In this document: positions 3,486 through 60,504 of the stretch, piece after piece
Layout: each line of letters begins with the position of its first letter
How positions within the stretch are numbered: the stretch's first letter is position 1
Origin: Candidatus Lloydbacteria bacterium RIFCSPHIGHO2_02_FULL_50_18
Lineage (GTDB): Bacteria > Patescibacteriota > Minisyncoccia > Phycocordibacterales > UBA6899
DNA length: 64,000 nt
Direction: 5' to 3'
Assembly: GCA_001821395.1 (NCBI GenBank)
Contig: MHLM01000014.1
Span: 160,001 to 224,000 of the forward strand
Position numbers and translations under genes: made by a program
Notes under the pieces: generated by a model
The model's input: the letters and a program-made list of their open reading frames with translations, nothing else
Database searches by the model: none
What the model was told of the DNA's origin: nothing

Positions 3486-3716
3486 CAACATGAAAATGAG
3501 GTAAGCATGATAGAAAACGGGGATAAGCAAACGACCCCAGGATGGATTGGACGCCTTATCCGTTGATGATTTCTCCGCCATTCGGATGAAGTACTTGTCC
3601 TGTCATGAACGAAGAATCCTCTGACGCGAGAAATACGAATGATGGAGCGATTTCGCTTGGCTGTGCTGCGCGTTTCAAGATAGAATTTAAGTAAGTCCCA
3701 TTGATTCTTGATTCGT

Positions 3717-3744
3717 GTGGTCAAATTTGCAAAGTCCTGATGGG
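3717..3744. repeat. 28-bp intergenic repeat (copy 2, identical to copy 1)
   Basis: exact match to 2995-3022. Confidence 0.8.
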
Positions 3745-3754
3745 GGAGTGGTGT

Positions 3755-3785
3755 TAAAAAATGTGCCGCACATTACTGTGCGGCG
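3755..3785 (-). terminator. terminator hairpin GCCGCACA-TTACTG-TGCGGC
   Basis: stem-loop with T-run on minus strand downstream of 3795..4115 ORF. Confidence 0.45.
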
Positions 3786-3794
3786 GGGAGGGGA

Positions 3795-4115
3795 TTAGCA
3801 GGTCGGTCGACGAATCCACCAGCCTGCATATTTGTCGTCAACAAGGTGGTTACGCCAGCCGTTCGGTCCAGCGAGTTCGGTTATCCGAACTCTCAGGAAT
3901 CTGGATGAAGCATTGTCCATTTTCATTGCGTTCGGCGGGATGAAAAGGAAGCCATCCGCGCTTACCTCTGCATCGCTCGGCACCATTCCCGTCAGGAGAA
4001 GTAATAGTGCATCAAACTCCTCCCGCTTTGTTTCATTGCGCGTGCTAGATTTCATTGCAAGTCTCCTTGTTCGTGGAAAAAGATCTGACCGCGGGATAAT
4101 AGCATGAATATACAA
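3795..4115 (-). CDS. hypothetical protein (106 aa), weak
   Basis: ORF followed by terminator and 28-bp repeat; overlapping + ORF 3832-4107 makes coding strand uncertain. Confidence 0.3.
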   Translation of the reverse strand: MYIHAIIPRSDLFPRTRRLAMKSSTRNETKREEFDALLLLLTGMVPSDAEVSADGFLFIPPNAMKMDNASSRFLRVRITELAGPNGWRNHLVDDKYAGWWIRRPTC

Positions 4116-8138: not shown

Positions 8139-9155
8139 TTAGTTGTCGCCCCCTCCACCACCGGCAGTCGAGCCGCCGCTATCGGGGGAGCTGAATGAGT
8201 CGAAGCTGCTCGAACTGCTCCCTGAACCGGAGTCATCACTGCGCTCCCAGTTGGACGAACTCGATTGAGTAGAAGCAATTTCAACCGCAGCTACTGCCGC
8301 AGCTGCTGCCGTAGCCGCATTCGTGCGTGCACTACGCGGCGGTGCATTGGAATATGAAGCAGGTCGCGTGGGCGGACGCTCGCGCCGTGCTTCCGGTCGC
8401 TTGGTAGGCAGAGGATATGTTGTGGGGAGGTCATCCTCACTCATTCTTTTCAGCCACTCGGCATATTCTTGTTTTTCACCGCGCACACGCTCCCGCTCCG
8501 CCTCCTCGTTCTTTCGTTTATTGATGCGATAGAGGTAAAGACAGAGCAGTGTTGATCCAAGAATAGCCAGCAAAAGAGGAACGGCAAATTCGAGACTTCG
8601 GTCACCTCCCGGCTGCCTTGTCACTGTTGTTTTCGGAACGAACTCATGCTTTGTGCGCTCCATAAGTGCATCAGTGCCTCGCATAAGTCCAAGCGCATAC
8701 GCCCCCAGTGTCCCATTATGCATCGCAGGCTTCATCGTTCCTTCGGTGATATTTTTAATCGCGAGATCAGGCACCGCGCCTTCAACGCCCCGTCCCGTGA
8801 CAATGCGTATCTTGTAAGGCGGAGTCTTGCCTGCGACGATGACGAGGATACCGGAGTCGATATCTGCTTGCCCCGGCTTCCATTTGTCAAAGAGTCCGAC
8901 GCCGAGGTCGATCAGTCCGGTGGGGTAGCCATAGTCCTGTGCTGACGTGATCGTTGCGATGACGATACTGACCTTGCTCGCATCGCGAAATTTCGCGAGT
9001 TTTGCGTTCAGCTCGTTCGCTTCATTCGGGCTTATCATCGACGCAAAGTCGTTGACGAAGCGGTCGGAAAGCGCGGGGAATTCGTTTGCGCCTGCGAGGG
9101 CAGCCGAAATGCAGAGAAAGATACCGAGCAGTAAGCGGGTGAATTTCATGGACAC
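8139..9155 (-). CDS. TPM-domain (TLP18.3/Psb32/MOLO-1) protein with C-terminal TM and Gly/Ser-rich tail
   Basis: signal peptide; DFASMISPNEANELNAKLAKF...SIVIATI...DSGILVIVAGKTPPYKIRIVTGRG pattern of TPM phosphatase domain. Confidence 0.7.
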   Translation of the reverse strand: MSMKFTRLLLGIFLCISAALAGANEFPALSDRFVNDFASMISPNEANELNAKLAKFRDASKVSIVIATITSAQDYGYPTGLIDLGVGLFDKWKPGQADIDSGILVIVAGKTPPYKIRIVTGRGVEGAVPDLAIKNITEGTMKPAMHNGTLGAYALGLMRGTDALMERTKHEFVPKTTVTRQPGGDRSLEFAVPLLLAILGSTLLCLYLYRINKRKNEEAERERVRGEKQEYAEWLKRMSEDDLPTTYPLPTKRPEARRERPPTRPASYSNAPPRSARTNAATAAAAAVAAVEIASTQSSSSNWERSDDSGSGSSSSSFDSFSSPDSGGSTAGGGGGDN

Positions 9156-9494
9156 TCCTTCTTTATGTTGAGTTCAATTTGAAGAGCTAACCGTTAGCAC
9201 AATAATACAATAAACATAATTTGTCAAAATTTTCTCAATGCGATGAGATACGCAATGGAGTACTCGGTTTGAGTGCAATTTGTTCAAGCAAAACAAACAG
9301 TCATTTAAAAGCTGTCGCTGCTCCGACCGATACTCAGCCTTATGAAATAGTATAAACTATACTTTTGATGTAAAATGAAAATGTTATTTTAGAACAAGAC
9401 ACATAATCGGAATTATGTGTCTCGCGGTTGTCTCCATGCTAGCGGATGAATGATAAAGGCAAAAGTGAAATTAAAACAATAAAAATAAAGAAAT

Positions 9495-12400
9495 ATGCAT
9501 ATATTTTTCAAATCATTGGTAGTGGGTGCGCTCTCCCTCTCTATACCATTTTTTGTCTCAGCAGAGGAAATACAACCAATTGTACCAGTATCTCAAATAC
9601 TCACAGATACGAATGAGATGAAGCCTATCGTGTTAGCCACTGTCAATCTTCAGAACGCCACCTCCACCCAAGAAGGACACACTTTCACTATCTCCTTCGA
9701 TCTGACAAATCGCGTGGGTGTCCAGCCTGGAGTGAAATATAGCGTAGTACTTATTAAGGAAACAGCTGTTGGGCAGACGATCGTAGATGAGCACGTATAT
9801 GACGAAACGATCAATCTGGGTGAAAATAGTTCTGTTCATAAAGTGGTCAATTACGCGCCCCCAACGAACATAGTGGGAGAGTACCTCCTCTTTATTTCTA
9901 GTGAGAACACAAGTGGATTTCCATTTGGACAAGCGACACTTGGAAAGGTGATCCTCAAGAGGAGTGATGCAGCTCAAAACCCTATTGTTATTGATACCGT
10001 AAGTTGCTATCTCACCGTAGAAGGGGAAAAAGATCAGCCTCACTATGCGCCTCGCCAGGGAGTCGATATCTCGATCGTTGAAAAATTACAAAGCAATTGT
10101 ATCGTAGAAAATACCTCGAATGTTCCAACTACCGCCACTCCTTCTTTTGTCACTCGCACCCGTTCCAATTTTGGTGAGATAGTATCCACGCAAGGTGGTG
10201 ATATGAACGCTGTTATATTTGCGCCGAATGAAAAAAAGACAATAGTAACATCTCTTCCAATATCGCTTACTCCACAATCTTACAATGTAAATCTTAAATA
10301 TGGAGCAACGAGTAATGAGATCTCCTACCACTATGTGATACAGGGCGCAGGCGGGACGATACAGAACATTCTTTTGGACAAAGATGCGTACGTCAAAGGG
10401 GAGACCGCAAATATTTCATTCATGTGGTCGCCTTCTGCCGATGGGTTCCCATACTCTCGTCAGGGGGCAAGTACTCAATTAACAAGTCCTTCCTTTGCTA
10501 TTTCGCTTGTTGATGAAACGGGAAATTCTTGTGCCAACTCCTTTAATCAGCCTCTATTGAGTGATGATATTCTTGTCCAAGCAAAGATAGCTATTATCTC
10601 TTCTTGTATTCATCCAAGAGCGAATGTGACGCTTGCCGATGCGAAGTTGGGGGTATTGGCACAAATGTCTTTTGAAACGGCCACGACGCCATCCCCATCA
10701 ATTCCGCAAAAAGAAACAAATACAAAAAACATCCTTGCGGTGATGCTGGTTATCCTTCTATCGGTGATATTTGCTTTTTTGATCTATCGTAATAAAAAGG
10801 TTCACTCTCTTCCCGTTGGCCCGCTTGTACTTCTCTTCGTGATCGGGTTCATGTTCACTCATGCGGAGATTGCGAGAGCGGATACGTTTTATACCGGATT
10901 TACTGGTACTACTCTTGTGAACGTATCGCTTAACAAGACTTCGTATGCCCCGGGGGAGCCGATGACAATAACTGGGTCAATAACCGTTGCTGGTTGTGCA
11001 AACTCAGGAGATTGGTATCTTCTTAAATACGGTGTCGATCTAGCTGTGGGCCCCTTTACCGGAGCATACCTCATTAGTCAGCGAATCGCTGGGGGGAGCA
11101 CTATTTTTTCTTCAGCCACTGTACCTGCCCCGCTGTTGGCAGGAAGTCATAGAGTCAATTTTCTTACTACGACAGGTTGGGTTGTCAGCAAATCTTATTT
11201 CTTACCTTTCACTGTTAATACTCCTTCTTGTACTGGCGCGACTCCCTGCGGTACTCCGGGTTCTTGCTTCGCAAAATCCGGCTGCAATAACGTCTGTGGC
11301 TCTACCGCCGTCAACGACTGTGCGGGTACCTGCGGAGGAGGCGCCGTAGACTACAATGGTGCAGTTGCAGGCTGTGGTTTCCCTGCCTGTACTGGAGCGA
11401 CTCCCTGCGGTACTCCGGGTTCTTGCTTCGCAAAATCCGGTTGTGATAACGTCTGCGGCTCTACCGCCGTCAACGACTGTGCAGGTACCTGTGGAGGAAG
11501 AGCTACCGACTACAATGGTGCAGTTGCAGGCTGTGGCGGACCACTTTCCATCACCGCAAACCCTGTTGCACCGATCACGCTTCCCACCACGACATTCACC
11601 TCTACGTATTCACTTACGAACGGTACGTCCGCGAACACGAATTGTCGTTTGCTTGATAATGCAAGTAATCCGCTCACCGGATATACTCCGTGCTCGGGGA
11701 GTATCGCCTACAACACTCCTGCTTCACCCGGTGCGTATGGTTATAATGTCCAAGCATTTAAGTCCTTGACCGGTGAGATCAAGACAAGCGCATTTACCGT
11801 GACGGTGAATGGTGCTGGCTGTTCCGCTACAACGATCGAGAACTGTGCACTTCCCGCAACCGCGACCGGAGGAAATGCGGGGAGTTGTAATAGCGGATAC
11901 GTCGGTTCCTGTAATTTCTCGTGTATGAACCGCGTATGGTCCTCGAATTCAAACTCCTGTACATTGATCCCTGCTCCCATCGTTACCGCCACAATAAACG
12001 GCGCGGCGACCGCATCGATAGGCTCGGGCGCACCATTCACCCTCGCAATGACCTCAAGCGGTGTTGGAGGGGGAACATGTTCATGGAGCCGCTCATCGGT
12101 TGCAAACAATCTCGGAGGAGATTTTGGGTTCGCGGCGATCCCCACAGCGAACGGGGGACCACAACAGTTCAACACCAACAATGTATTCTCCGGATGGAGG
12201 GGCCCAACAAAAGTGACTTGGATATTCAAATGTGACAATGGGTTCGGGCTCTCCACCTCAAGGTCTGTGGAACTCACCATTGCCGCTCCTGTTCCAGCGA
12301 TAACAATCAATCCGATCAATAATCTGCTTTTCGGTGATGTTCCGCTCAATAATACTCGTATTCGGACGTTCACCATCACAAATACCGGAGACATCGGTTC

Positions 12401-45360: not shown

Positions 45361-46176
45361 ATGATATGCTTGATATCAAGTATAAATATACAATTAACGA
45401 TCATGCAAAAAAGACTTATTCAATCAGGGCGGACGCGTTTTGCCAACGATATCATCGCGGAGTTTTGGATGCCGAAAAAAGCATCGGGGCGGGCGATCAT
45501 CCTGTGTGACGGGTGTCCGACGGTTCCATCGAAGCGGAGACTGGGAGAATTTCTGGCGCGAAAGGGCTATTGGGTCTTCCATCTGCGCTATCGCGGGTCC
45601 TGGGAGTCAGGCGGTGAGTTCTTGAAGTACGCTCCACGGGAGGACGTGCTGCTTGTTGCCGAAGGACTGAATAAGGGATTCATTGAAATATGGAGCGGGG
45701 TGACATATTTTCTTGATATATCGGATATCACCGTTGTCGGGGCGTCATTCGGAGGGGCAGCCGCACTGCTCTCATCGCTCGACCCGCGCATCTCGCGCGC
45801 TGTCACACTTGCCCCTGCCGTAGATTTTTGCTACGGGAAAAGCGGCGAGTCATTTGCTGAATTCGAGCGTCAGGTGAAGGAAGGATTCGCCGGCGCATAC
45901 CGCGGACCAACAAAGAATTATGCCAAATTGAAGACCGGAAAATTCTACAATCCTATCGCGCACGCCAAGGCATTTGATCCGACAAAGATATTCATTGTGC
46001 ATGCGAAGGATGACAAGGTGGTCCCGCTTGCTTCCGTGCGTATGTTTGCCGGAGCTACGAAACTTCCTAAGAAAAATTTTCAGGTCTTGAAAGAAGGCGG
46101 GCATTTGTCGACAAATATCGCTACAGAGCAGAATGTCTGGAAAAATATCGCACGATTCATCGCAACGAGTAAGTAG
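45361..46176 (+). CDS. alpha/beta hydrolase (dienelactone hydrolase/S9-like)
   Basis: VVGASFGGAAALL GxSxG; C-terminal His. Confidence 0.65.
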   Translation: MICLISSINIQLTIMQKRLIQSGRTRFANDIIAEFWMPKKASGRAIILCDGCPTVPSKRRLGEFLARKGYWVFHLRYRGSWESGGEFLKYAPREDVLLVAEGLNKGFIEIWSGVTYFLDISDITVVGASFGGAAALLSSLDPRISRAVTLAPAVDFCYGKSGESFAEFERQVKEGFAGAYRGPTKNYAKLKTGKFYNPIAHAKAFDPTKIFIVHAKDDKVVPLASVRMFAGATKLPKKNFQVLKEGGHLSTNIATEQNVWKNIARFIATSK

Positions 46177-46246
46177 ATGGAAGAGGGAACAGATAAGCGG
46201 TCACTATTCACAGCACCGCTTTTTTGTTGTCTTGAAACGTGAGATA

Positions 46247-47800
46247 ATGTCCGCAATGACCACTCTTCTTCAATACACGAAAGCGCATAAGTTTTTGATG
46301 ATCTTGCTCGTACTTGCCATCGCCGGTGTTGGGTATTATTTTACGCGTCCTCCTGCCGCGCCGAATTACGAGACAACCCTTGTAAAAAAAGGGAACGTGA
46401 TACAGGAAGTTTCGATCACAGGAAAAGTAGAGTCCGATAGCGTCGTCTCGCTGGCATTTGAGCGCGGCGGGCGTGTGGTGAGCGAGCCTATTCCCGTCGG
46501 TGCGCACGTAAGGCGCGGGGATCCATTGGTTCGGCTGGATACAAAAGAATTGGATGCACTTCGTTTGCAGGCACAAGCGAACCTCGATGTCGAGCTGGCA
46601 AATCTGGCACAACTCAAAAGCGGGACCAGAAGCGAAGATATTGCGGTATCCGAAGCACAAGTGAGAAGCGCGCAGTCCGCCGTCACCGATGCGCACGCCT
46701 CATTGCAAGACAAGCTTGCCTCTGCAGGTACGACCGCTGATGATGCTATCTTTAACAAGACTGATTATCTCTTTGAGAATCCCCGTACGGCAAATCCGCG
46801 TTCAATCTTCCCGGTCGCTGATCAACAGCTGGTGGCCAGAATTGAGCAGGAGCGCGAGCAGCTGACGCAAGCATTGAAGCAGCTAACGCCCTCGGGTGGT
46901 GATTTTGAGGCGGATCTCTCTCTGCATAAGACCTATTTCAATGATGTGAAGGTCTATCTTGATGACCTTGCCTCGGCGATCAACGCGGTCACCCCTTCCT
47001 CACTGTTTTCTCAGACAACCATCGACGGATGGAAGGCGAATGTATCGATCGCTCGGACAAATATGAATACGGTGATGTCCGCATTGCTTTCCTCCGAACA
47101 GGCTTATCGCGCAGCAGACGCGGCGCTTGTCATCGCGAACAATCAGCTGGCGCTTAAAAAAGCGGGAGCGACACCGGAGGCAGTGAGTGCGGAAGAGGCA
47201 AAGATAAGGTCGGTCAGTGCAACGATCGCAAACTACGATGCACAGATGACAAAGTCGGTCATCAGCGCACCGTTCTCGGGGACGGTGACGACTCAGAATG
47301 CAAAGCTTGGGGAAACTGTCGCGCCAAATGTTCCTGTCGTTGCGCTCATGAGTGACGGCGTATTCAAGATCACTGCGAACATTCCCGAAGTGGATGTTGC
47401 GAAGCTTACGGTGGGTGATAGTGCGAGGGTCACACTCGATGCATACGGTGCGGACGTGCTTTTTAAGGCAACGGTTTCAAGTATCGACCCAGCGGAGACG
47501 GTCATTGAGGGCGTCTCAACCTATAAGGCGACATTACGATTTGAAGGCAGAGACGCGCGTATTCGCTCGGGCATGACGGCCAATATCGACATCTCAACCG
47601 ACAAACGTGAAAATGTACTCTATGTTCCGGCGCGATCTGTTTTTAACAAGGATGGTAAAAAATACGTGAGAGTTCCCGATGGTCAGACGCTTACTGTCGA
47701 TACGGAGGTCACAACCGGTCTTCGGGGTTCTGATGGGTCGATCGAGGTCCTCAGTGGGCTTAGCGAGGGGCAGACCATCGTGACATTCCAGGCGAAATAG
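46247..47800 (+). CDS. HlyD-family periplasmic adaptor (MacA-like)
   Basis: ATG 46247; N-terminal TM, long coiled-coil, C-terminal beta-barrel; upstream of ABC ATPase+FtsX permease. Confidence 0.7.
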   Translation: MSAMTTLLQYTKAHKFLMILLVLAIAGVGYYFTRPPAAPNYETTLVKKGNVIQEVSITGKVESDSVVSLAFERGGRVVSEPIPVGAHVRRGDPLVRLDTKELDALRLQAQANLDVELANLAQLKSGTRSEDIAVSEAQVRSAQSAVTDAHASLQDKLASAGTTADDAIFNKTDYLFENPRTANPRSIFPVADQQLVARIEQEREQLTQALKQLTPSGGDFEADLSLHKTYFNDVKVYLDDLASAINAVTPSSLFSQTTIDGWKANVSIARTNMNTVMSALLSSEQAYRAADAALVIANNQLALKKAGATPEAVSAEEAKIRSVSATIANYDAQMTKSVISAPFSGTVTTQNAKLGETVAPNVPVVALMSDGVFKITANIPEVDVAKLTVGDSARVTLDAYGADVLFKATVSSIDPAETVIEGVSTYKATLRFEGRDARIRSGMTANIDISTDKRENVLYVPARSVFNKDGKKYVRVPDGQTLTVDTEVTTGLRGSDGSIEVLSGLSEGQTIVTFQAK

Positions 47801-47807
47801 ACGGAGA

Positions 47808-48515
47808 TTGATCGTCATGGCACTTATCGAAACAAAGGGTATTGAGAAGGTCTTCGGGGGAGAAACGCCCACGGTGGCATTGCGTAACATAAATTTTATC
47901 GTTGATCGGGGTGAATTTGTTTCGATCGTCGGGCCGTCCGGTTCGGGTAAGTCAACCTTGCTGCAGATCCTCGGGCTTCTTGATTCTCCGACGGCCGGAA
48001 GTTATTTTCTTGATGGGAAAGATACTTCAACGCTCTCTGATGAAGAGTTGGCAAAGTTGCGCAATCGCACACTTGGTTTTGTGTTTCAATCATTCAACCT
48101 ACTGGCGCGGACGTCGGTGCTTGAGAACGTGAAACTTCCGCTTGCTTACTCAAATTTTCCCTCACGTTCGTGGGATAAAATGGCAATGGCGCAGATCGAG
48201 GCGGTTGGGTTGTTGAAGCGTGTGTATCATGAACCATCGCAGCTTTCCGGAGGAGAGCGTCAGCGTGTGGCAATAGCGCGCGCGCTTGTTACAAACCCTG
48301 AGATCATCTTTGCTGATGAGCCGACGGGGAACCTTGATTCTGCGTCCGGCAAGGTAGTGATGGACACATTGACACGACTGCATCACGAAGGGAAAACCGT
48401 TATCCTCATCACACATGATCGCAATGTTGCGCGACGTGCCCACCGTGCAGTTTTGTGCAGAGATGGTGCGATCGTATGGGAAGGAGACGTTAATGATATT
48501 CCGGAAATTTCATAA
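47808..48515 (+). CDS. ABC transporter ATP-binding protein (MacB/LolD-type)
   Basis: GPSGSGKST, LSGGERQRVAIARAL, IIFADEPTGNLD. Confidence 0.9.
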   Translation: MIVMALIETKGIEKVFGGETPTVALRNINFIVDRGEFVSIVGPSGSGKSTLLQILGLLDSPTAGSYFLDGKDTSTLSDEELAKLRNRTLGFVFQSFNLLARTSVLENVKLPLAYSNFPSRSWDKMAMAQIEAVGLLKRVYHEPSQLSGGERQRVAIARALVTNPEIIFADEPTGNLDSASGKVVMDTLTRLHHEGKTVILITHDRNVARRAHRAVLCRDGAIVWEGDVNDIPEIS

Positions 48516-48517
48516 TT

Positions 48518-49762
48518 ATGTCTTCATTTTTTTACACAGCAAGATCAGCAAGTCGCGCCGTCGGTGCCAACCGGGTCCGTTCCGGTCTTACGGTCCTCGG
48601 TATCGTGATCGGTGTCACGTCGATCATCCTTATCGTCTCGATCGGTGAGGGTGCGCAGTCGCTCATCCTGGGGCAAATTCAAGGCTTGGGAGCTGAGACC
48701 ATCGTGATACGCCCGGGGAGAAAGCCGTCCGGTCCGACGGATATGGCGCAGACATTATTTGCGGACTCCATCAAGCAGCGAGAGGTTGACGCATTGAAAC
48801 GTAAGGAAAACGTACCCGACTATGTCTCCTCAGCACCGCTGCTCATGGTGTCGGATTCAGTGACCTACGGTTCCAACATTGAGCATCCTACGATCTACGG
48901 TTGGTCTGCAGAGTTCATGGTAAGCATGATAAAAGCAAAGATAAGAGTCGGAACTATTTTTGATGAGGAGGATATAAAACAGGAAGCGGCGGTTGCGGTG
49001 CTTGGGAGTCAGATTTCCGATGATCTGTTCGCGGGTGATGATCCTATCGGGAAGTCTATTCGCATTGGGACGAAAAATTTTCGCGTTGTCGCAGTGCTTC
49101 AAGGGGGTGGGGGAGGGCTTTTGAACACAGACAAGATGGTGGTGATCCCGTACTCTACTGCGCTTACGTACCTCTCGTCAGGGAAACATTACAATGAGGT
49201 CATGTTGAAGGTCTCTTCGCCGGAAGCTGTGGCGCGTTCCGTTGAGGACATCAAAGCGACGCTTCGGGAACTGCACAGCATTACCGATCCTGCGAAAGAT
49301 GATTTTTATGTCGAGACACAGCAGGCGGCGATAGATCAGATCGGTACCATACTTTCGGTGCTCACTGCATTTCTTTCCGCGGTGGTCGCGATATCGCTCG
49401 TCGTCGGCGGCATCGGCGTGATGAATGTCATGCTCGTATCGGTCACCGAGCGTACAAAAGAGATTGGTCTGCGAAAGGCGCTCGGTGCGACCAATAGTGA
49501 TATTTTGACGCAATTCTTGCTCGAGGCGGTGCTCCTCACTATGGTGGGAGGTGCGATCGGCATTGTCCTCGGGGTCCTGTTCGGTTATGGCGCATCTATT
49601 GCCTTATCGCAAAATCTTAATGTCGATTGGGCGTTCGCATTCCCATGGAGAGCGGCGCTCATCGGTCTTGGTGTTTCCGGCGGCGTGGGTATCGTCTTTG
49701 GGATCTATCCTGCACGGCAGGCTTCACAGAAGAGTCCGATCGAGGCGCTCCGTTACGAGTAA
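48518..49762 (+). CDS. ABC transporter permease, FtsX/MacB-type
   Basis: N-terminal TM + periplasmic domain + C-terminal 3-TM FtsX pattern. Confidence 0.8.
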   Translation: MSSFFYTARSASRAVGANRVRSGLTVLGIVIGVTSIILIVSIGEGAQSLILGQIQGLGAETIVIRPGRKPSGPTDMAQTLFADSIKQREVDALKRKENVPDYVSSAPLLMVSDSVTYGSNIEHPTIYGWSAEFMVSMIKAKIRVGTIFDEEDIKQEAAVAVLGSQISDDLFAGDDPIGKSIRIGTKNFRVVAVLQGGGGGLLNTDKMVVIPYSTALTYLSSGKHYNEVMLKVSSPEAVARSVEDIKATLRELHSITDPAKDDFYVETQQAAIDQIGTILSVLTAFLSAVVAISLVVGGIGVMNVMLVSVTERTKEIGLRKALGATNSDILTQFLLEAVLLTMVGGAIGIVLGVLFGYGASIALSQNLNVDWAFAFPWRAALIGLGVSGGVGIVFGIYPARQASQKSPIEALRYE

Positions 49763-49771
49763 GTCCCGCTC

Positions 49772-49903
49772 GGGTTTTCTTCTTTTGAAAGGCACACAGT
49801 CGGCCCCTCCTGCGGGGGCCGCTGTCACTCTCGGCCAATTGCCCCATCAGAATGGGGACCAAGCCAATTGTCCTCCGAGAGGCCTTTCAAAAGAAGAAAA
49901 CCC
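49772..49903. repeat. 132-bp element with 22-bp perfect terminal inverted repeats and nested internal hairpins (MITE-like / structured element)
   Basis: GGGTTTTCTTCTTTTGAAAGGC ... GCCTTTCAAAAGAAGAAAACCC; internal GGCCCC/GGGGCC, CTCTCGG/CCGAGAG, CCCCA/TGGGG stems; CCAATTG repeated. Confidence 0.6.
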
Positions 49904-50145
49904 TCGCCTCAGAGGAGCGGCGTTTGAGTTTGGTGCCCGCAGGTGGAGAAGAAACACTTGGCAGAATAGCTAGTTAGTGCGAGTATGTTTAGTAACTCGT
50001 GACCGAGTTCTCGGGAGGAAACGAGCGAAATTAGAATACGCAAAACATGAATATAGTGTATTTATCCCCATTCTCAGAGACTTGGGTTGCAAAGGGCTTG
50101 CAGGCTGAGTATTTTCAACTCCTAAACGAGTTTAAAAAATAAAAT

Positions 50146-50505
50146 ATGAATATAAATATAAAAGCATTACATTTTTTGGGATTACCGATTAAAAGAGAAA
50201 TCTATACAAAAGCAATTTGCTCACTCTTCGGAATACTCATTTTATTTTTTGTTGTACTGGTCGTCGTGCCTTCGGTGGTTTGGCAGGCAGTACCATATTT
50301 GCTTTGGGCAATTATAATTATGTATGTTTTCTATATCGGAATTGCTCTCATTGTCTCTTTTTATCTCATAAGTCGAAGACTTAAAACCTTGGGATATTCC
50401 ACGCTGTGGATGATACTGATGTTCTTTCCAATCTTTTTTGTTTTTGTGGTGCTCGGTCTTATGGCACCAAGTGATGAAAAAATAGTTTACAAAATTTCAG
50501 CCTAG
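50146..50505 (+). CDS. DUF805-family inner-membrane protein
   Basis: ISRRLKTLGYSTLWMILMFFPIFFVFVVLG resembles DUF805 RRLHDxGxSGWW motif; in AT-rich islet. Confidence 0.5.
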   Translation: MNINIKALHFLGLPIKREIYTKAICSLFGILILFFVVLVVVPSVVWQAVPYLLWAIIIMYVFYIGIALIVSFYLISRRLKTLGYSTLWMILMFFPIFFVFVVLGLMAPSDEKIVYKISA

Positions 50506-50546
50506 TTTGGGGCAATCACACTGACCCCAGTGGACCAAAGTTGGGA

Positions 50547-51218
50547 ATGTGGATTATTGCATTATTTGGAGGAAACAAAATCCTCACCCATATGAAATCA
50601 AAGAAGAAGCCCGTAATAGAGCACAAAAGAAAGATACGAAACATAAGTGACTATGTTTATGACTGCCTCAACCGCCTGCGTGACCACGCTGACCTCATTT
50701 TATATCTTGGTAAACACAAGGACGACTTTGCCGGGGGTACACCAAAACAAAGCCTCTCTATAATTATTTCAATGATCGACGTCTATTCAAGGGATGCCAT
50801 TGTTATTTTCGGCACAATTTTTGATAAGAATAGGCAGACATCATCACTTTATACGATGGTTGACCACATAAAAGATGAGAAGAAGCGGAAGCGTTATCAG
50901 AAGAGGCTAGATAATATAAAAACATCTATAAATCAAATAGTCCGTGCCAGAGGAAATCAGGTTGGTCATTTCAATACAAAACTGAATATCCACGACAACC
51001 ACGACAATGGCTTTATTCATATCAACGGTGTTTTTCAGGTGGACCCACGCTTTACAAAAAAGATAGCAAATAGAATAGAGCGATTTTACTGGGATATTAG
51101 AGAAGAGCTTGGGGTTGAAGGAACTTTTGTTTTTCACAAAGGAGAACCAACCGCAAAGTCATTTGCCAGATTGGTCGGCAAGGCACCCAAGCGCTTGAGT
51201 GGTGGTATAAAAACTTAA
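50547..51218 (+). CDS. hypothetical protein with HEPN-like Rx5H motif (possible Abi-like)
   Basis: RARGNQVGH motif in predicted helical protein; AT-rich context; start uncertain (TTG 50541/ATG 50547/ATG 50592). Confidence 0.35.
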   Translation: MWIIALFGGNKILTHMKSKKKPVIEHKRKIRNISDYVYDCLNRLRDHADLILYLGKHKDDFAGGTPKQSLSIIISMIDVYSRDAIVIFGTIFDKNRQTSSLYTMVDHIKDEKKRKRYQKRLDNIKTSINQIVRARGNQVGHFNTKLNIHDNHDNGFIHINGVFQVDPRFTKKIANRIERFYWDIREELGVEGTFVFHKGEPTAKSFARLVGKAPKRLSGGIKT

Positions 51219-51395
51219 ACCTTGATACCCAATGTAGTGGGGTAGGGTGTGGGAATATAGATTGTCGCATCATTTAATCGTTCAAACACAGTTCTAACGT
51301 CCTCTACGACGCGACGGCTGGTCTTGGGCGAGTAAATAGACAGACGATATGCAAATTGCTAGGGTGGAGGCAGTTGTTCAATACAAGGAGTTTTT

Positions 51396-52169
51396 ATGAG
51401 GCCATATATTGGTATTTGCGACTTTACCGCACCGGAACAAGCGCATCGCCTGCTCCAGTTGATCCCTCACGGATTTTCTCATGACCTTATGGTCGGCGTG
51501 ATGATGAGCTATAAAACGCTCAATAATCTTCCGACAAAATGGGCAAGGGTGTTTCCTGCGAAAAAGAATATTCGATCGATCTTCGTCGATGATCCGCGCG
51601 TCTTGAATACCATTCATTATGCCGATTATGCCACAGGGGTTGATGCCGATCGACAGCTCGCGTATACGCTGGCCAAGGTGGAGATCTACGGCGGAGCGTG
51701 TCTTGGGGCGATCCAGCTCGATATGATCTGGCCGGATCCGGATGAGCTCAAGAAGTTTCGCGAGCACTGTAATATCCCCATCATCCTGCAGGTTGGTGCG
51801 AATGCGATGCGCGAATGCGGCGATGACCCCATTGCAACCTGTGAGCGATTGAAGACGTATGGCACTACGATCAATGCCGTACTTTTTGATAAAAGCATGG
51901 GTCGCGGGGTGGGGATGGATGCCGCGCTCTTGGCGAAGTATGCGGGAGTGCTTTCGTTCGACTGCCCGCATCTTGCACCCGCAGTGGCCGGGGGGCTTGG
52001 TCCGTCATCAATGGACCTCGTGGCACCGCTCATTCGAGCGTTTCCCGATCTTTCGATCGACGCACAGGGGCGGCTGCGTAAGAGCGGCAACATGAAAGAC
52101 CCGATCGATTGGTCGATGGCGGAAGATTATTTCACGCAAGCGGTGGCACTGTTTTCCAAACAACCGTAA
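51396..52169 (+). CDS. phosphoribosylanthranilate isomerase (TrpF)-like TIM-barrel protein
   Basis: LFDKSMGRGVGMDAALL and VAGGLGPSSMDL resemble TrpF GGSG..FDW / LAGGL motifs. Confidence 0.5.
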   Translation: MRPYIGICDFTAPEQAHRLLQLIPHGFSHDLMVGVMMSYKTLNNLPTKWARVFPAKKNIRSIFVDDPRVLNTIHYADYATGVDADRQLAYTLAKVEIYGGACLGAIQLDMIWPDPDELKKFREHCNIPIILQVGANAMRECGDDPIATCERLKTYGTTINAVLFDKSMGRGVGMDAALLAKYAGVLSFDCPHLAPAVAGGLGPSSMDLVAPLIRAFPDLSIDAQGRLRKSGNMKDPIDWSMAEDYFTQAVALFSKQP

Positions 52170-52265
52170 TGACCCGAGGCCCCGCAGAAGCGGGGCCTTT
52201 CTTTTTTGAATAATGATCGATGAATGGTATACTCTTTCCGTATTATTGACGGTAATTTTTTAATC

Positions 52266-52979
52266 ATGAATCAAACAACGTGGATCATTGGGGGTGGAGT
52301 TGTCATCGTGGCAATCGCCGCATTGCTCTATTTATCAAGCGGAAGCGGTACACCAAAGACTGAGCCGACAACCATTCCCGCAGCGGAAATAACGGTAGAC
52401 GATAAACCTATCGCAACCTCAACTTCGGTTGAAGCCCCAACGGATATTACTCGAACATCACAAGGAAATATGGAACAAAAAACAAATGAATCAAGCAGTG
52501 CGACACTGCACACAAGCATGGGCGACATCACGCTTAAATTTTACGCGAGTGATGCGCCAAAGACGGTCGAAAACTTTCTCAAACTTGCACAGTCGGGTTT
52601 TTATGACGGCGTGAAGTTTCACCGCGTGATTAAAGGATTCATGATCCAGACCGGTGACCCGCTTTCAAAGGATGACACGATGATGTCACGATGGGGCACC
52701 GGTGGACCGGGGTACCAGTTTGCCGATGAAATCGTGCCCGCGAGTGCGCTCTATCAGAAAGGGTACAAGCATGGTGTTCTTGCCATGGCGAACTCCGGAG
52801 CAAATACGAACGGAAGCCAGTTCTTCATTATGGCTGCCGATTATCCGCTTCCACCGCTCTACACGATCTTCGGGGAGGTGACGAGTGGGCTACCCGTTGT
52901 TGATGCGATAGACGCGGTGCCGACGTCACAGGACCGACCGCTTACTTCCGTGGTTATCAAGTCAGTCGAAGTCAAATAG
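52266..52979 (+). CDS. cyclophilin-type peptidyl-prolyl isomerase with N-terminal TM anchor
   Basis: HTSMGDITLKFYASDAPKTVENFLKLA...FHRVIKGFMIQTGDP...LAMANSGANTNGSQFFI. Confidence 0.8.
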   Translation: MNQTTWIIGGGVVIVAIAALLYLSSGSGTPKTEPTTIPAAEITVDDKPIATSTSVEAPTDITRTSQGNMEQKTNESSSATLHTSMGDITLKFYASDAPKTVENFLKLAQSGFYDGVKFHRVIKGFMIQTGDPLSKDDTMMSRWGTGGPGYQFADEIVPASALYQKGYKHGVLAMANSGANTNGSQFFIMAADYPLPPLYTIFGEVTSGLPVVDAIDAVPTSQDRPLTSVVIKSVEVK

Positions 52980-53110
52980 TTGGATTCCACGCAAATGGTG
53001 AACTTCTTTGTTGCGGGGCCCCTATGATTCGGTCACCATATAAGAATATGCCTTCCTCGTCACTTTCCCCGCGTCTCGAATTTCATCCATTTGTATGAAA
53101 TCCAGTCGAT

Positions 53111-53141
53111 AAAAAAAGACCCTGCAAAGGGTCTTTTTTTA
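53111..53141. terminator. bidirectional terminator GACCCT-GCAAA-AGGGTC flanked by A7/T7
   Basis: between convergent genes. Confidence 0.65.
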
Positions 53142-53148
53142 TATGATG

Positions 53149-53337
53149 TTATCGTTTCTTTGAAATGAGAAAGTGTGCCGCAAAATAGAGCAAGAGTCCC
53201 GGGAGTATCCCCGTAAGGACCATAAGGACGATGTAGCCGACACGGAGTATGCCGGGGCTGACTTCCATCCATTCACCTAAACCTCCGAATATGCCGCTGG
53301 CAACCTTGGAGTCATCACTTTTATGCAGTTTTTTCAT
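53149..53337 (-). CDS. PspC-domain small membrane protein
   Basis: KVASGIFGGLGEWMEVSPGILRVGYIVLMVLTG. Confidence 0.55.
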   Translation of the reverse strand: MKKLHKSDDSKVASGIFGGLGEWMEVSPGILRVGYIVLMVLTGILPGLLLYFAAHFLISKKR

Positions 53338-53360
53338 ATGAGCTATTGTATCGCAGACGA

Positions 53361-54194
53361 TCAGCGAAATGCAAACTTCTTTTGCAGGCTTTTGAGAAAA
53401 TAATTATCTTCAAACTCCGCAAAAGTGATGATATGTTTTGACTTCGTGACCTCGACGCGGTCTTTTTCGTGAAGAGGGAAGAGGTCCATATCATCGGCGG
53501 TAAGCACCGCATCAATGGGTTCATTGGTTTGTGTGATTGCGAGAATTCCTCTTTTGCGCACTTCGGTGATGTCGATGTACACGGTCTTTGTGTTTTTGAG
53601 GACAAGAGACGGTGTCGGAATATTGTGATCAAGCAACTCCGTGACAATCATGCAGTGCATGTCCGGAGTGACGATCGGCCCGTGCGCCGAGAGATTGTAT
53701 GCGGTAGAACCGGTCGGAGTCGCGATGATCACCCCCGAGCCGTGTACATATTGGAGCGGATGCCCATCAACGGATATCGTCATTCTGATCGTACCCATGA
53801 TGCCTTGCGCGGTGACTTCATTCAGGCAGTCGGTGGTGTGGACGAGGGCTCCGCCGCGAAATACTTTTGCGGTAAGCATCATGCGATGTGTCGTGACGAA
53901 CGATCCTGAAAGGAGGGCGTCAACTGCACCGATGAATTGATCCGGTCTTCGAGCGGATGCTAAAAAACCGACATGACCAAGATTAAGACCGAGGAATATC
54001 GGTGCGTTTTTTTGAAAGTATCGTGCGCTTTCCAGTATCGTTCCGTCACCGCCGAGGGTGATCACAAAATTGGGTTTTTCCGTTACGATCAGAACACGCG
54101 GATGGTGTGCGGCGATGTGTGCGATGATCTTCTTTTTCCAGTTCAGTGCGCGCCGGTTGTCGGCTCGGCAAAATAGTGCGACTCGTGTTTTCAT
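53361..54194 (-). CDS. nadK: NAD(+) kinase
   Basis: VITLGGDGTILESARYF GGDGT motif; overall NadK pattern. Confidence 0.85.
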   Translation of the reverse strand: MKTRVALFCRADNRRALNWKKKIIAHIAAHHPRVLIVTEKPNFVITLGGDGTILESARYFQKNAPIFLGLNLGHVGFLASARRPDQFIGAVDALLSGSFVTTHRMMLTAKVFRGGALVHTTDCLNEVTAQGIMGTIRMTISVDGHPLQYVHGSGVIIATPTGSTAYNLSAHGPIVTPDMHCMIVTELLDHNIPTPSLVLKNTKTVYIDITEVRKRGILAITQTNEPIDAVLTADDMDLFPLHEKDRVEVTKSKHIITFAEFEDNYFLKSLQKKFAFR

Positions 54195-60432: not shown

Positions 60433-60504
60433 GTCCTTGTCGTTCAATGGATAGGATATCTCCCTCCGAAGGAGATGATGCTGGTTCGATTCCAGCCAAG
60501 GGCA
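60433..60504 (+). tRNA. tRNA-Arg (anticodon CCG)
   Basis: cloverleaf folded by hand: acceptor GTCCTTG/CAAGGGC (one G-U), D-loop AATGGATA, anticodon stem TCTCC/GGAGA with loop CTCCGAA, T-arm GCTGG-TTCGATT-CCAGC, discriminator A. Confidence 0.8.

Follow-up and report, generated by a model that had tools for sequence, protein, structure and literature searches.

Does the short AT-rich islet in this 64,000-nucleotide stretch of Candidatus Lloydbacteria DNA (hereafter the window) derive from elsewhere, and if so, what might its genes do for their host? From the limits of blastn homology to a related contig (L014), we placed the islet proper at 50069-51322 of the forward strand. Homology to L014 ends at 50068 and restarts at 51323, and the flanks are common to related Lloydbacteria and Parcubacteria contigs. 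The 1.25 kb of variable cargo between them holds two ORFs on the same strand, and its GC content is 0.390 versus 0.489 over the whole window, with values of 0.356 and 0.400 in the 500-nucleotide intervals 50001-50500 and 50501-51000 and about 0.50-0.55 on either flank. GC is as low in 1.15% of equal-length segments slid along the whole window, and one other region, at the start of the window, is equally low. The genes themselves share this bias (ORF1, GC 0.344 and GC3 0.350, z = -4.6 and -3.1; ORF2, GC 0.397 and GC3 0.416, z = -3.1 and -2.1; both relative to 23 long ORFs, mean GC3 for comparison 0.55). An earlier sequence-only reading had described an AT-rich islet with two ORFs and a compositional skew, and both descriptions were confirmed, the skew also by GC3. 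A possible sigma-70-like promoter for the forward strand can be read upstream of ORF1, where the cargo begins (50087-50115; TTGCAA, a 17-nucleotide spacer and TATTTT); it agrees at 8 of 12 positions and falls under the promoter-scan threshold.

Low GC could in principle reflect local constraint, with hydrophobic or Lys-rich coding and intergenic DNA accounting for it and no foreign origin involved. Ile, Leu, Phe and Val are indeed abundant in ORF1 and Lys in ORF2, and both biases favour AT-rich codons. However, GC3 is low as well (0.35 and 0.42 against 0.55), and comparison of the insertion site among related genomes effectively refutes this explanation, which we regard as very improbable. The site lies between a macB-type ABC exporter operon (FtsX) and a conserved 257-aa gene (p257). 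It is empty in L017 and L027, where the FtsX-p257 gap measures 63 and ∼90 nucleotides, and the gap in L028 is ∼305 nucleotides. L015 and L014/L024 carry other cargo, of low GC in L014 and L015; in L014/L024 both flanks are kept and the cargo is instead a 568-aa ATPase (PADLOC AriA, 3.7e-30; Old, 8.6e-23) with a GC content of 0.361 versus 0.484 for its flanks. Because related genomes have the site either empty or occupied by different low-GC cargo, the comparisons indicate that 50069-51322 was acquired horizontally and that the site is a defence hotspot. The proposal of horizontal acquisition is further borne out by the HEPN genes of the family, which have a GC content of 0.32-0.42 (local host GC 0.32-0.525), low even where the GC of the host is higher, and which in L009 and L010 are 79% identical versus 52% for FtsZ and TrxB. 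After an identical protein (P0001), the closest listed homologue of ORF2 (P0002, 88%) is encoded at a different locus, adjoining trxB-ftsZ.

The borders of the cargo were searched for direct repeats and terminal inverted repeats and none were found, nor was an integrase among the ORFs adjoining the islet (46133-54194) or in the syntenic loci. A tRNA-linked island was rejected because the window has a single tRNA, located at 60433. The gene at 51396-52169 had been labelled 'trpF-like', a name that finds no support in Pfam, NCBIfam or PDB sequence searches, and p257 has no NCBIfam match.

A nearby inverted repeat had been taken as a sign of mobility, and this interpretation did not survive comparison with other strains. 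Its two 22-nucleotide arms (49772-49793 and 49882-49903) both lie upstream of the cargo, within a flank that is common to the strain carrying different cargo, and conservation with L014 runs 165 nucleotides beyond the repeat. The same structure recurs at the L028 site, which has no cargo. The window contains one copy of it, and in ∼306 kb searched it was found at this locus only; Rfam holds no family for it or for anything else in 49700-51450. A transposon or MITE was rejected on the grounds that the arms fail to flank the cargo, the element is single-copy and the borders have no direct repeats. An integron attC site and a retron ncRNA were rejected for the repeat on position, copy number and the lack of an integrase or reverse transcriptase, and an integron cassette on the lack of an integrase and of an attC at the boundary, the flank being conserved past the repeat. 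The inverted repeat is a locus-specific structured element and not a transposon end.

ORF2 had been read as 50547-51218, which corresponds to the public GenBank/UniRef entry for this cluster, a protein of 223 aa. The end at 51218 and the peptide RARGNQVGH both stand, but the start does not: because all 20 aligned homologues begin at the equivalent of the ATG at 50592 (MKSKKKP...), this is most likely the true start, giving a 208-aa protein (50592-51218, forward strand). UniRef names the product 'HEPN AbiU2-like domain-containing protein' and that of ORF1 'DUF805 domain-containing protein', so the public databases already carry both labels. The AbiU2 family was described by Anantharaman et al. 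2013 (PMC3710099). Against Pfam HEPN_AbiU2 (PF18734; gathering threshold 26.8 bits) ORF2 scored below threshold (16.8 bits, E = 0.0048), as did the 18 of its 20 close relatives that matched. Two further relatives exceed the cut-off (P0028, 28.4 bits; P0039, 33.1 bits), and an exhaustive profile search ties them to the ORF2 family with E-values of 2.4e-49 and 2.7e-06, linking ORF2 to AbiU2 by transitive homology. A search of 1.84 billion proteins found 17 representatives of the subfamily at E ≤ 1e-3. Every member with a source name is from Patescibacteria, and the family appears to be a small one of that group. No relatives were found in phage or plasmid collections (tblastn) or in IMG/VR (scan). 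ORF2 has no NCBIfam match and no Abi or HEPN match in PADLOC, where it matched only, and weakly, the C-terminal end of one type IIG restriction-modification (RM) model (E = 8.7e-4), and the family alignment found nothing meaningful when run as a profile against PDB sequences.

An Rx4-6H match is by itself uninformative, being present in ∼90% of residue shuffles of ORF2 and in 26 of the 38 long ORFs of the window; its weight comes from invariance within the family and from position in the fold. The predicted catalytic Rx5H motif, R120-G-N-Q-V-G-H126 (codons at 50949-50969, forward strand; R120 at 50949-50951, H126 at 50967-50969), is invariant at R120 and H126 in 32 sequences with identities down to 18%, and the only other invariant columns of the family are S66 and D78. 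In HEPN proteins the residue after the conserved arginine is usually N, D or H. Here it is G121, and the position is occupied by G, S, A, N, H or Y across the family with no conservation of N, D or H; an N at +2 from the motif arginine is common. A second conserved block, D63-V-Y-S66-R67-D68 through D78, is encoded at 50778-50825 (forward strand), with D63, Y65, R67 and D68 at least 90% conserved in the 32-sequence alignment. D63-x3-R67 lies inside helix 2 and D78 just past it, and the block is a candidate for the acidic/basic equivalent of the HEPN Ex3[KR] element.

An AlphaFold model of ORF2 (pLDDT 81, pTM 0.78) has four long helices, of which helix 2 spans residues 53-76 and helix 3 is kinked (residues 96-112 and 115-124). 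Helix 3 carries the motif at its C-terminal end, which is where PMC3710099 places the HEPN active-site motif, and the fold is compatible with that of HEPN proteins. A Foldseek search of the model against the PDB gave no match at E < 0.2, with HEPN entries at non-significant ranks 27-40. One feature is peculiar to the window copy: a 9-nucleotide tandem duplication, two copies of CCACGACAA (50990-51007, forward strand; TRF and alignment), adds three residues (HDN) to the loop between helices 3 and 4, giving NIHDNHDNG where all other aligned members have NI---HENG.

Could ORF2 nevertheless be a helical bundle with no catalytic activity, perhaps serving in binding or regulation, that merely resembles HEPN, leaving the islet with no defence role? 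The sub-threshold Pfam score, the ubiquity of four-helix bundles and the expectation of an Rx4-6H match by chance would all allow this. Yet the 32 divergent sequences have only four invariant columns, among them R120 and H126. The AbiU2 cut-off is exceeded by two members of the family and the genes recur in defence islands, and we judge a non-catalytic bundle quite improbable. The suggestion that ORF2 is HEPN-like thus held up: transitive homology, motif invariance and a compatible fold support a HEPN-type, AbiU2-like protein.

The earlier link to defence held up for the relatives of ORF2, which sit in defence islands. HEPN homologues lie beside type II/III RM genes, among others: they are found near a type III RM system and Nhi/AbiO (7.5e-155) in L001, near AriAB/PARIS (1.9e-115) and a GajB-like UvrD helicase in L009, near HpaII RM in L010, near Drt2 (1.9e-113) and a serine recombinase in L013, and near REase_III, GajB-like and PDC-S02 genes in L039. 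At L012 and L041 no recognisable defence genes surround the homologue. AbiU2 has itself been found in R-M operons (PMC3710099). In our literature search we found no mention of HEPN or AbiU in the paper on the aquifer defensome, and no biochemical characterisation of an AbiU2-family protein in the papers searched and read.

HEPN genes are also known from toxin-antitoxin pairs, and a small reading frame at the start of ORF2 bears on this. In L001, L009 and L039 an intact mini-ORF of 53-56 aa overlaps the HEPN start and is conserved at the peptide level, with the consensus W[ST]xEExxxIVGxFxxLLKxDKKxNPHLY; this 'NPHLY' peptide is a real family of 59 clusters. Comparison with these intact versions reveals a degenerate remnant of the same small overlapping upstream ORF in the window (50525-50650, forward strand; PQWTKVGNVDYCIIWRKQNPHPYE...), in another frame than the HEPN gene and with no ATG. 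ORF2 might accordingly be the toxin of an addiction pair that stabilises islands, with the 'NPHLY' ORF as its usual antitoxin; the antitoxin having decayed here, the window copy would be inactive or differently controlled, and phage defence would not be its role as such. The intact overlapping frames, the size of the peptide family and the remnant in the window fit this proposal. Against it, the mini-ORF also occurs without any HEPN gene in L043 and L044, and the window, L012, L013, L040 and L041 either lack it or have it in degenerate form, although their HEPN genes are intact and keep all invariant residues. In addition, no MNT nucleotidyltransferase was found in ORF1 or any neighbour (∼ten loci), nor any other known HEPN antitoxin nearby, and upstream of ORF2 no tandem repeats of the type III toxin-antitoxin kind were found, TRF returning only a 6-nucleotide AT-rich run and the intragenic 9-nucleotide duplication. 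We consider an addiction pair unlikely and prefer a solo HEPN protein, for which no antitoxin or sensor partner was evident, a point against it, since a constitutive RNase would somehow have to be tolerated. A bolder idea, to which we assign a low probability, is that the Patescibacteria-restricted solo AbiU2-like HEPN gene and the widespread overlapping 'NPHLY' mini-ORF form an undescribed toxin/regulator defence module. As a separate part of this idea, the inverted repeat following the macB operon, as a covarying three-way-junction element, would be a structured RNA of a new kind, marking or regulating the insertion site of Lloydbacteria defence cargo.

The remaining candidate for a partner is ORF1 (50146-50505, forward strand), a 119-aa membrane protein containing SRRLKTLGYSTLWMILMFFPIFF. 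It had been described as DUF805-type, and it is weakly DUF805-like. Hydropathy gives three hydrophobic segments, and alignment with the E. coli DUF805 proteins YhaH and YhaI (121 and 118 aa) shows a similar length and a shared RRL..S..W..L..P at the same position. We took the DUF805 signature as ∼120 aa, three transmembrane segments and RRLHDxxxSGWW before the last of them. In ORF1 this signature is partial (RRLKTLGYSTLW), with KT in place of HD, and the match to Pfam DUF805 (PF05656; E = 2.9e-4, profile positions 10-100 of 111) scores 21.7 bits against a gathering threshold of 25.7 bits. No homologue was detectable: ORF1 matched itself alone among 5.8 billion clusters, has no NCBIfam match and gave nothing in PADLOC. 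We know of no function for the DUF805 family, and our literature search found no characterised case linking it to phage defence.

Even so, ORF1 and ORF2 might constitute a two-gene module in which the membrane protein is coupled to the HEPN RNase and serves as its sensor, antitoxin or effector. The genes lie on the same strand 86 nucleotides apart, share low GC, belong to one cargo and may share one promoter. Moreover, two or three other contexts also have a membrane protein, not homologous to ORF1, next to the HEPN gene: in L013 a 189-aa multi-TM protein lies 36 nucleotides upstream of it, and L012 and the P0016 contig each have a divergent DUF6804 protein. However, the gene directly before most HEPN homologues is an RM or helicase gene or a small soluble ORF, and all-against-all BLAST of the flanking genes at nine loci revealed no relative of ORF1 at any other HEPN locus. 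With no homologue in sequence collections either, the expectation that this gene pair recurs in defence islands was not borne out. A two-gene module therefore seems unlikely, and we conclude that ORF1 is a co-resident orphan, weakly DUF805-like, and no conserved partner of ORF2.

Taken together, we think it probable that the cargo was acquired horizontally at the variable macB-p257 site of Candidatus Lloydbacteria and that its functional core is a solo AbiU2-family HEPN protein, with a predicted role in RNase-based defence. By analogy with characterised HEPN enzymes, ORF2 would form a dimer in which R120 and H126, with N122 and the helix-2 residues D63, S66, R67 and D78, build a metal-independent endoribonuclease site. 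Triggered on infection, it would cut RNA of the host, the phage or both in the style of abortive infection, some restraint presumably keeping its toxicity in check, and the resulting anti-phage response may back up neighbouring restriction-modification systems. Bacteria of the Candidate Phyla Radiation largely do without CRISPR-Cas, and restriction-modification and abortive-infection genes are reported to be their mainstay (PMC4742961). The locus offers a clean minimal example, with one predicted HEPN RNase gene in a strain-variable site where a sister strain holds an OLD/AriA-like gene, and the AbiU2 family gains from it a small branch that is apparently specific to Patescibacteria. Otherwise the islet is ordinary defence-island cargo that changes no concept, its domain labels being already in UniRef.

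Among known systems, the AbiU2 HEPN family is the one that ORF2 resembles: both are small standalone proteins predicted as four-helix bundles, with R-x(4-6)-H ending helix 3 and an association with R-M operons or defence islands, and two members of the ORF2 subfamily lie over the Pfam cut-off. ORF2 differs in its own 16.8-bit score, its very small subfamily, the Rx5H spacing, a G for N/D/H after the arginine and the lack of a Sel1-repeat partner. The HEPN-MNT (HepT/MntA) type II/VII toxin-antitoxin systems have an adjacent MNT gene, which is missing in the window and at the homologous loci, and the integron-cassette HEPN protein Vpc_cass2 (PDB 3jrt) shares 7% sequence identity with ORF2, which has no attC or integrase beside it. 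In comparison with defence hotspots of interchangeable cargo, the macB-p257 site is very small, accommodating one or two genes, and no integrase, tRNA or direct repeats were detected at its borders. It nevertheless shares with them a conserved flanking gene pair around strain-variable, low-GC defence cargo, which is the HEPN gene here and an AriA/OLD-like ATPase in L014.

The low-GC islet at 50069–51322, bounded by comparison with related contigs, lies between the FtsX end of a macB-type exporter operon and a conserved 257-aa gene (p257), and carries as hotspot cargo an intact AbiU2-type HEPN gene (ORF2) that keeps every family-invariant residue. As the sequence-only reading had proposed, the islet is AT-rich: its GC is 39.0% versus 48.9% for the whole window and so lies below the window mean rather than at a genome average. 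In 500-nt windows GC is 35.6% (50001–50500) and 40.0% (50501–51000) against 50–55% on both flanks, and just 1.15% of equal-length sliding windows are as low, the remainder of these all at the extreme window start. GC3 is also depressed (ORF1 0.35, ORF2 0.42, versus 0.55 ± 0.065 for 23 long ORFs), so the low GC is not mere amino-acid bias. Elsewhere in the window, low-GC stretches at 1–1800 (0.33–0.40; ORFs of 192, 107 and 264 aa) and 9000–11000 (0.40–0.44) may likewise have been acquired.

Related MAGs share the gene order around the site (upstream, the RND-adaptor/ABC/FtsX operon; downstream, p257, a cyclophilin, PspC and NAD kinase), and the FtsX–p257 gap varies in content. It is empty in loci L017 (63 nt) and L027 (about 90 nt), holds only a structured element in L028 (about 305 nt), the element plus a 95-aa ORF without Pfam or PADLOC match in L015 (about 800 nt), and an AriA/OLD-like ATPase in L014/L024 (about 2300 nt); in the window its 1633 nt contain the element, ORF1 and the HEPN gene. 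The nearest relative with other cargo, L014 (Parcubacteria GW2011_GWA2_47_7; p257 91% identical), loses homology with the window at 50068 and regains it at 51323. Its cargo is a 568-aa AAA_15/AAA_21 ATPase (L014 4191–5897; also in L024/L025) matched in PADLOC by AriA (3.7e-30) and Old (8.6e-23), with GC of 0.361 versus 0.484 in the flanks. HEPN genes have 32–42% GC irrespective of local host GC (32–52.5%), and the HEPN proteins of loci L009 and L010 share 79% identity, against just 52% for FtsZ and TrxB. Taken together, the empty or differently filled site, the low GC and this identity contrast make horizontal acquisition into a defence hotspot well supported, largely as first suggested.

The downstream neighbour p257 (51396–52169) is 37–92% identical across Lloydbacteria, Jorgensenbacteria, Paceibacterota and other Patescibacteria MAGs, with a relative in one MAG labelled Bdellovibrionales. 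It has no match in Pfam, NCBIfam or PDB sequence searches, leaving its earlier label 'trpF-like' without a counterpart there; it is an uncharacterised conserved family.

The adjacent inverted repeat had been called a TIR and taken as a sign of mobility, wrongly. Its perfect 22-nt arms (49772–49793 and 49882–49903) close a three-way junction (z = -5.3 versus shuffles) within an element at 49768–49919 that begins ~10 nt past the FtsX stop. The same architecture occupies the same place, with other arm sequences, in L015 (5211–5372; z = -9.4) and cargo-free L028 (941–1101); L014 has a rearranged version (3707–3880), L026 also carries the element (1–110), and L017 and L027 lack it. The closing stem (~20 bp) varies in sequence among genomes while pairing is kept, with compensatory changes in 27 of 50 predicted pairs across the three sequences compared. 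Conserved features are a CCUGCG loop, a ACCAAGCC segment and then a CCUCGC...GAGGAG hairpin. Because a covariance model found it at this locus alone (about 306 kb searched, whole window included) and Rfam gave no match, the inverted repeat is a locus-specific structured element. A transposon end was rejected, as the element is confined to the locus, is present at cargo-free L028, and is followed by 165 nt, to 50068, still conserved with L014. Possible identities are a structured RNA not yet described, an elaborate terminator or a terminator complex. The ~150 non-coding nt between element and cargo (49920–50068), common to the differently filled L014, may serve any cargo at the site as promoter or leader.

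Both ORFs are present as originally called, and the ORF2 stop at 51218 is correct. Its start most likely is not: all homologues have theirs at the position matching ATG 50592 (MKSKKKP..., 208 aa), rather than at 50547, which the public 223-aa protein fits (A0A1G2CTH1; GenBank OGZ04695.1; UniRef name "HEPN AbiU2-like domain-containing protein"). The family is tiny, with only 25 relatives among 5.8 billion clusters (word-indexed search) and only 17 matches at E<=1e-3 among 1.84 billion representatives (exhaustive HMM search); named sources are Candidatus Lloydbacteria and Candidatus Nomurabacteria. ORF2 scores 16.8 bits against Pfam HEPN_AbiU2, under the cut-off of 26.8; the model is matched by 18 of 20 close relatives, and two remoter members exceed the cut-off (P0028, 28.4 bits; P0039, 33.1 bits). 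On its own the Rx4-6H pattern is uninformative, because it arises in ~90% of ORF2 shuffles and in 26 of the 38 long window ORFs. In a 32-sequence alignment reaching down to 18% identity, however, only S66, D78, R120 and H126 are invariant, so the RARGNQVGH motif noticed initially holds an invariant R-x5-H. An AlphaFold2 model from this alignment (pLDDT 81, pTM 0.78) has four long helices (11–41, 53–76, 96–124 with a kink at 113–114, and 152–173), with R120 in the final turn of the third helix and H126 directly past it, the position that PMC3710099 gives for the HEPN motif. The second conserved acidic residue of HEPN domains is assigned to helix 2 (Anantharaman et al., PMC3710099); in the model D63-x3-R67 lies within helix 2 and D78 just past it. 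The invariant motif, the HEPN_AbiU2 link through relatives and the four-helix model thus leave the HEPN assignment largely right. Within the gene, 50990–51007 consists of two perfect tandem copies of the 9-nt CCACGACAA, a duplication that adds HDN to the loop after the predicted catalytic motif in this copy only among 20 aligned homologues.

The suspected defence association also largely holds. In L001 the homologue follows a type III RM pair and precedes an Nhi/AbiO gene (PADLOC 7.5e-155). In L009 it has a GajB-like UvrD helicase on one side and a fused AriAB/PARIS gene (1.9e-115) on the other, and in L010 it comes after the genes for M.HpaII and R.HpaII. In L013 it precedes a Drt2 reverse transcriptase (1.9e-113), and a serine recombinase is close by; in L039 REase_III and a GajB-like helicase come ahead of it and a PDC-S02 NucS-like gene follows. 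No recognisable defence genes surround the homologues in L012 and L041, and searches of phage, plasmid and IMG/VR collections turned up no relatives. In other Patescibacteria, trxB-ftsZ-ftsA adjoins three of these islands (L001, L009, L010), and its side is a recurrent defence hotspot. Type II/III RM, Nhi/AbiO, AriAB and GajB-like helicase genes occur there in differing combinations, with the HEPN gene last or second-to-last ahead of trxB.

Neither an MNT antitoxin nor a tandem-repeat RNA antitoxin is present. In L001, L009 and L039 a 53–56-aa ORF (W[ST]xEExxxIVGxFxxLLKxDKKxNPHLY) begins just upstream of the HEPN gene and runs across its start in a different frame, and 50525–50650 of the window is only its decayed remnant. 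A role as dedicated antitoxin is doubtful, because the peptide also occurs without HEPN (L043, L044). Its family (53–60 aa, consensus W[ST]xEERDRIVGFFALLLKxDKKxNPHLYE, 59 clusters) has no Pfam match and one named source, a Patescibacteria group bacterium; in L043 its neighbour is a pP_pnuc_1 gene, and the locus also has AAA_13 and MTase genes.

A recurring DUF805–HEPN pair had been envisaged, mistakenly: no other HEPN locus compared has a relative of ORF1 (50146–50505), so the pair is non-recurrent. In L013, L012 and the P0016 contig, small membrane proteins unrelated to ORF1 adjoin the HEPN gene, and a membrane-protein partner is a minor alternative. ORF1 (119 aa, three hydrophobic segments; UniRef "DUF805 domain-containing protein") has no database match besides itself, and its DUF805 call is weak, at 21.7 bits (cut-off 25.7; profile positions 10–100 of 111). 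It is like E. coli YhaH/YhaI in length and in the RRL...S..W..L..P motif, but has KT in place of the HD of their RRLHD signature.

Both domain labels were already in public annotation, and ORF2 is an uncharacterised member of the AbiU2-type HEPN kind. By analogy with established HEPN biochemistry (KEN/RNase L, PrrC and RloC, summarised in PMC3710099), it would be a dimer-dependent, metal-independent endoribonuclease, with H126 as predicted general base and R120 stabilising the transition state. On infection, RNA cleavage by ORF2 would abort phage replication, as a putative second line behind RM systems.
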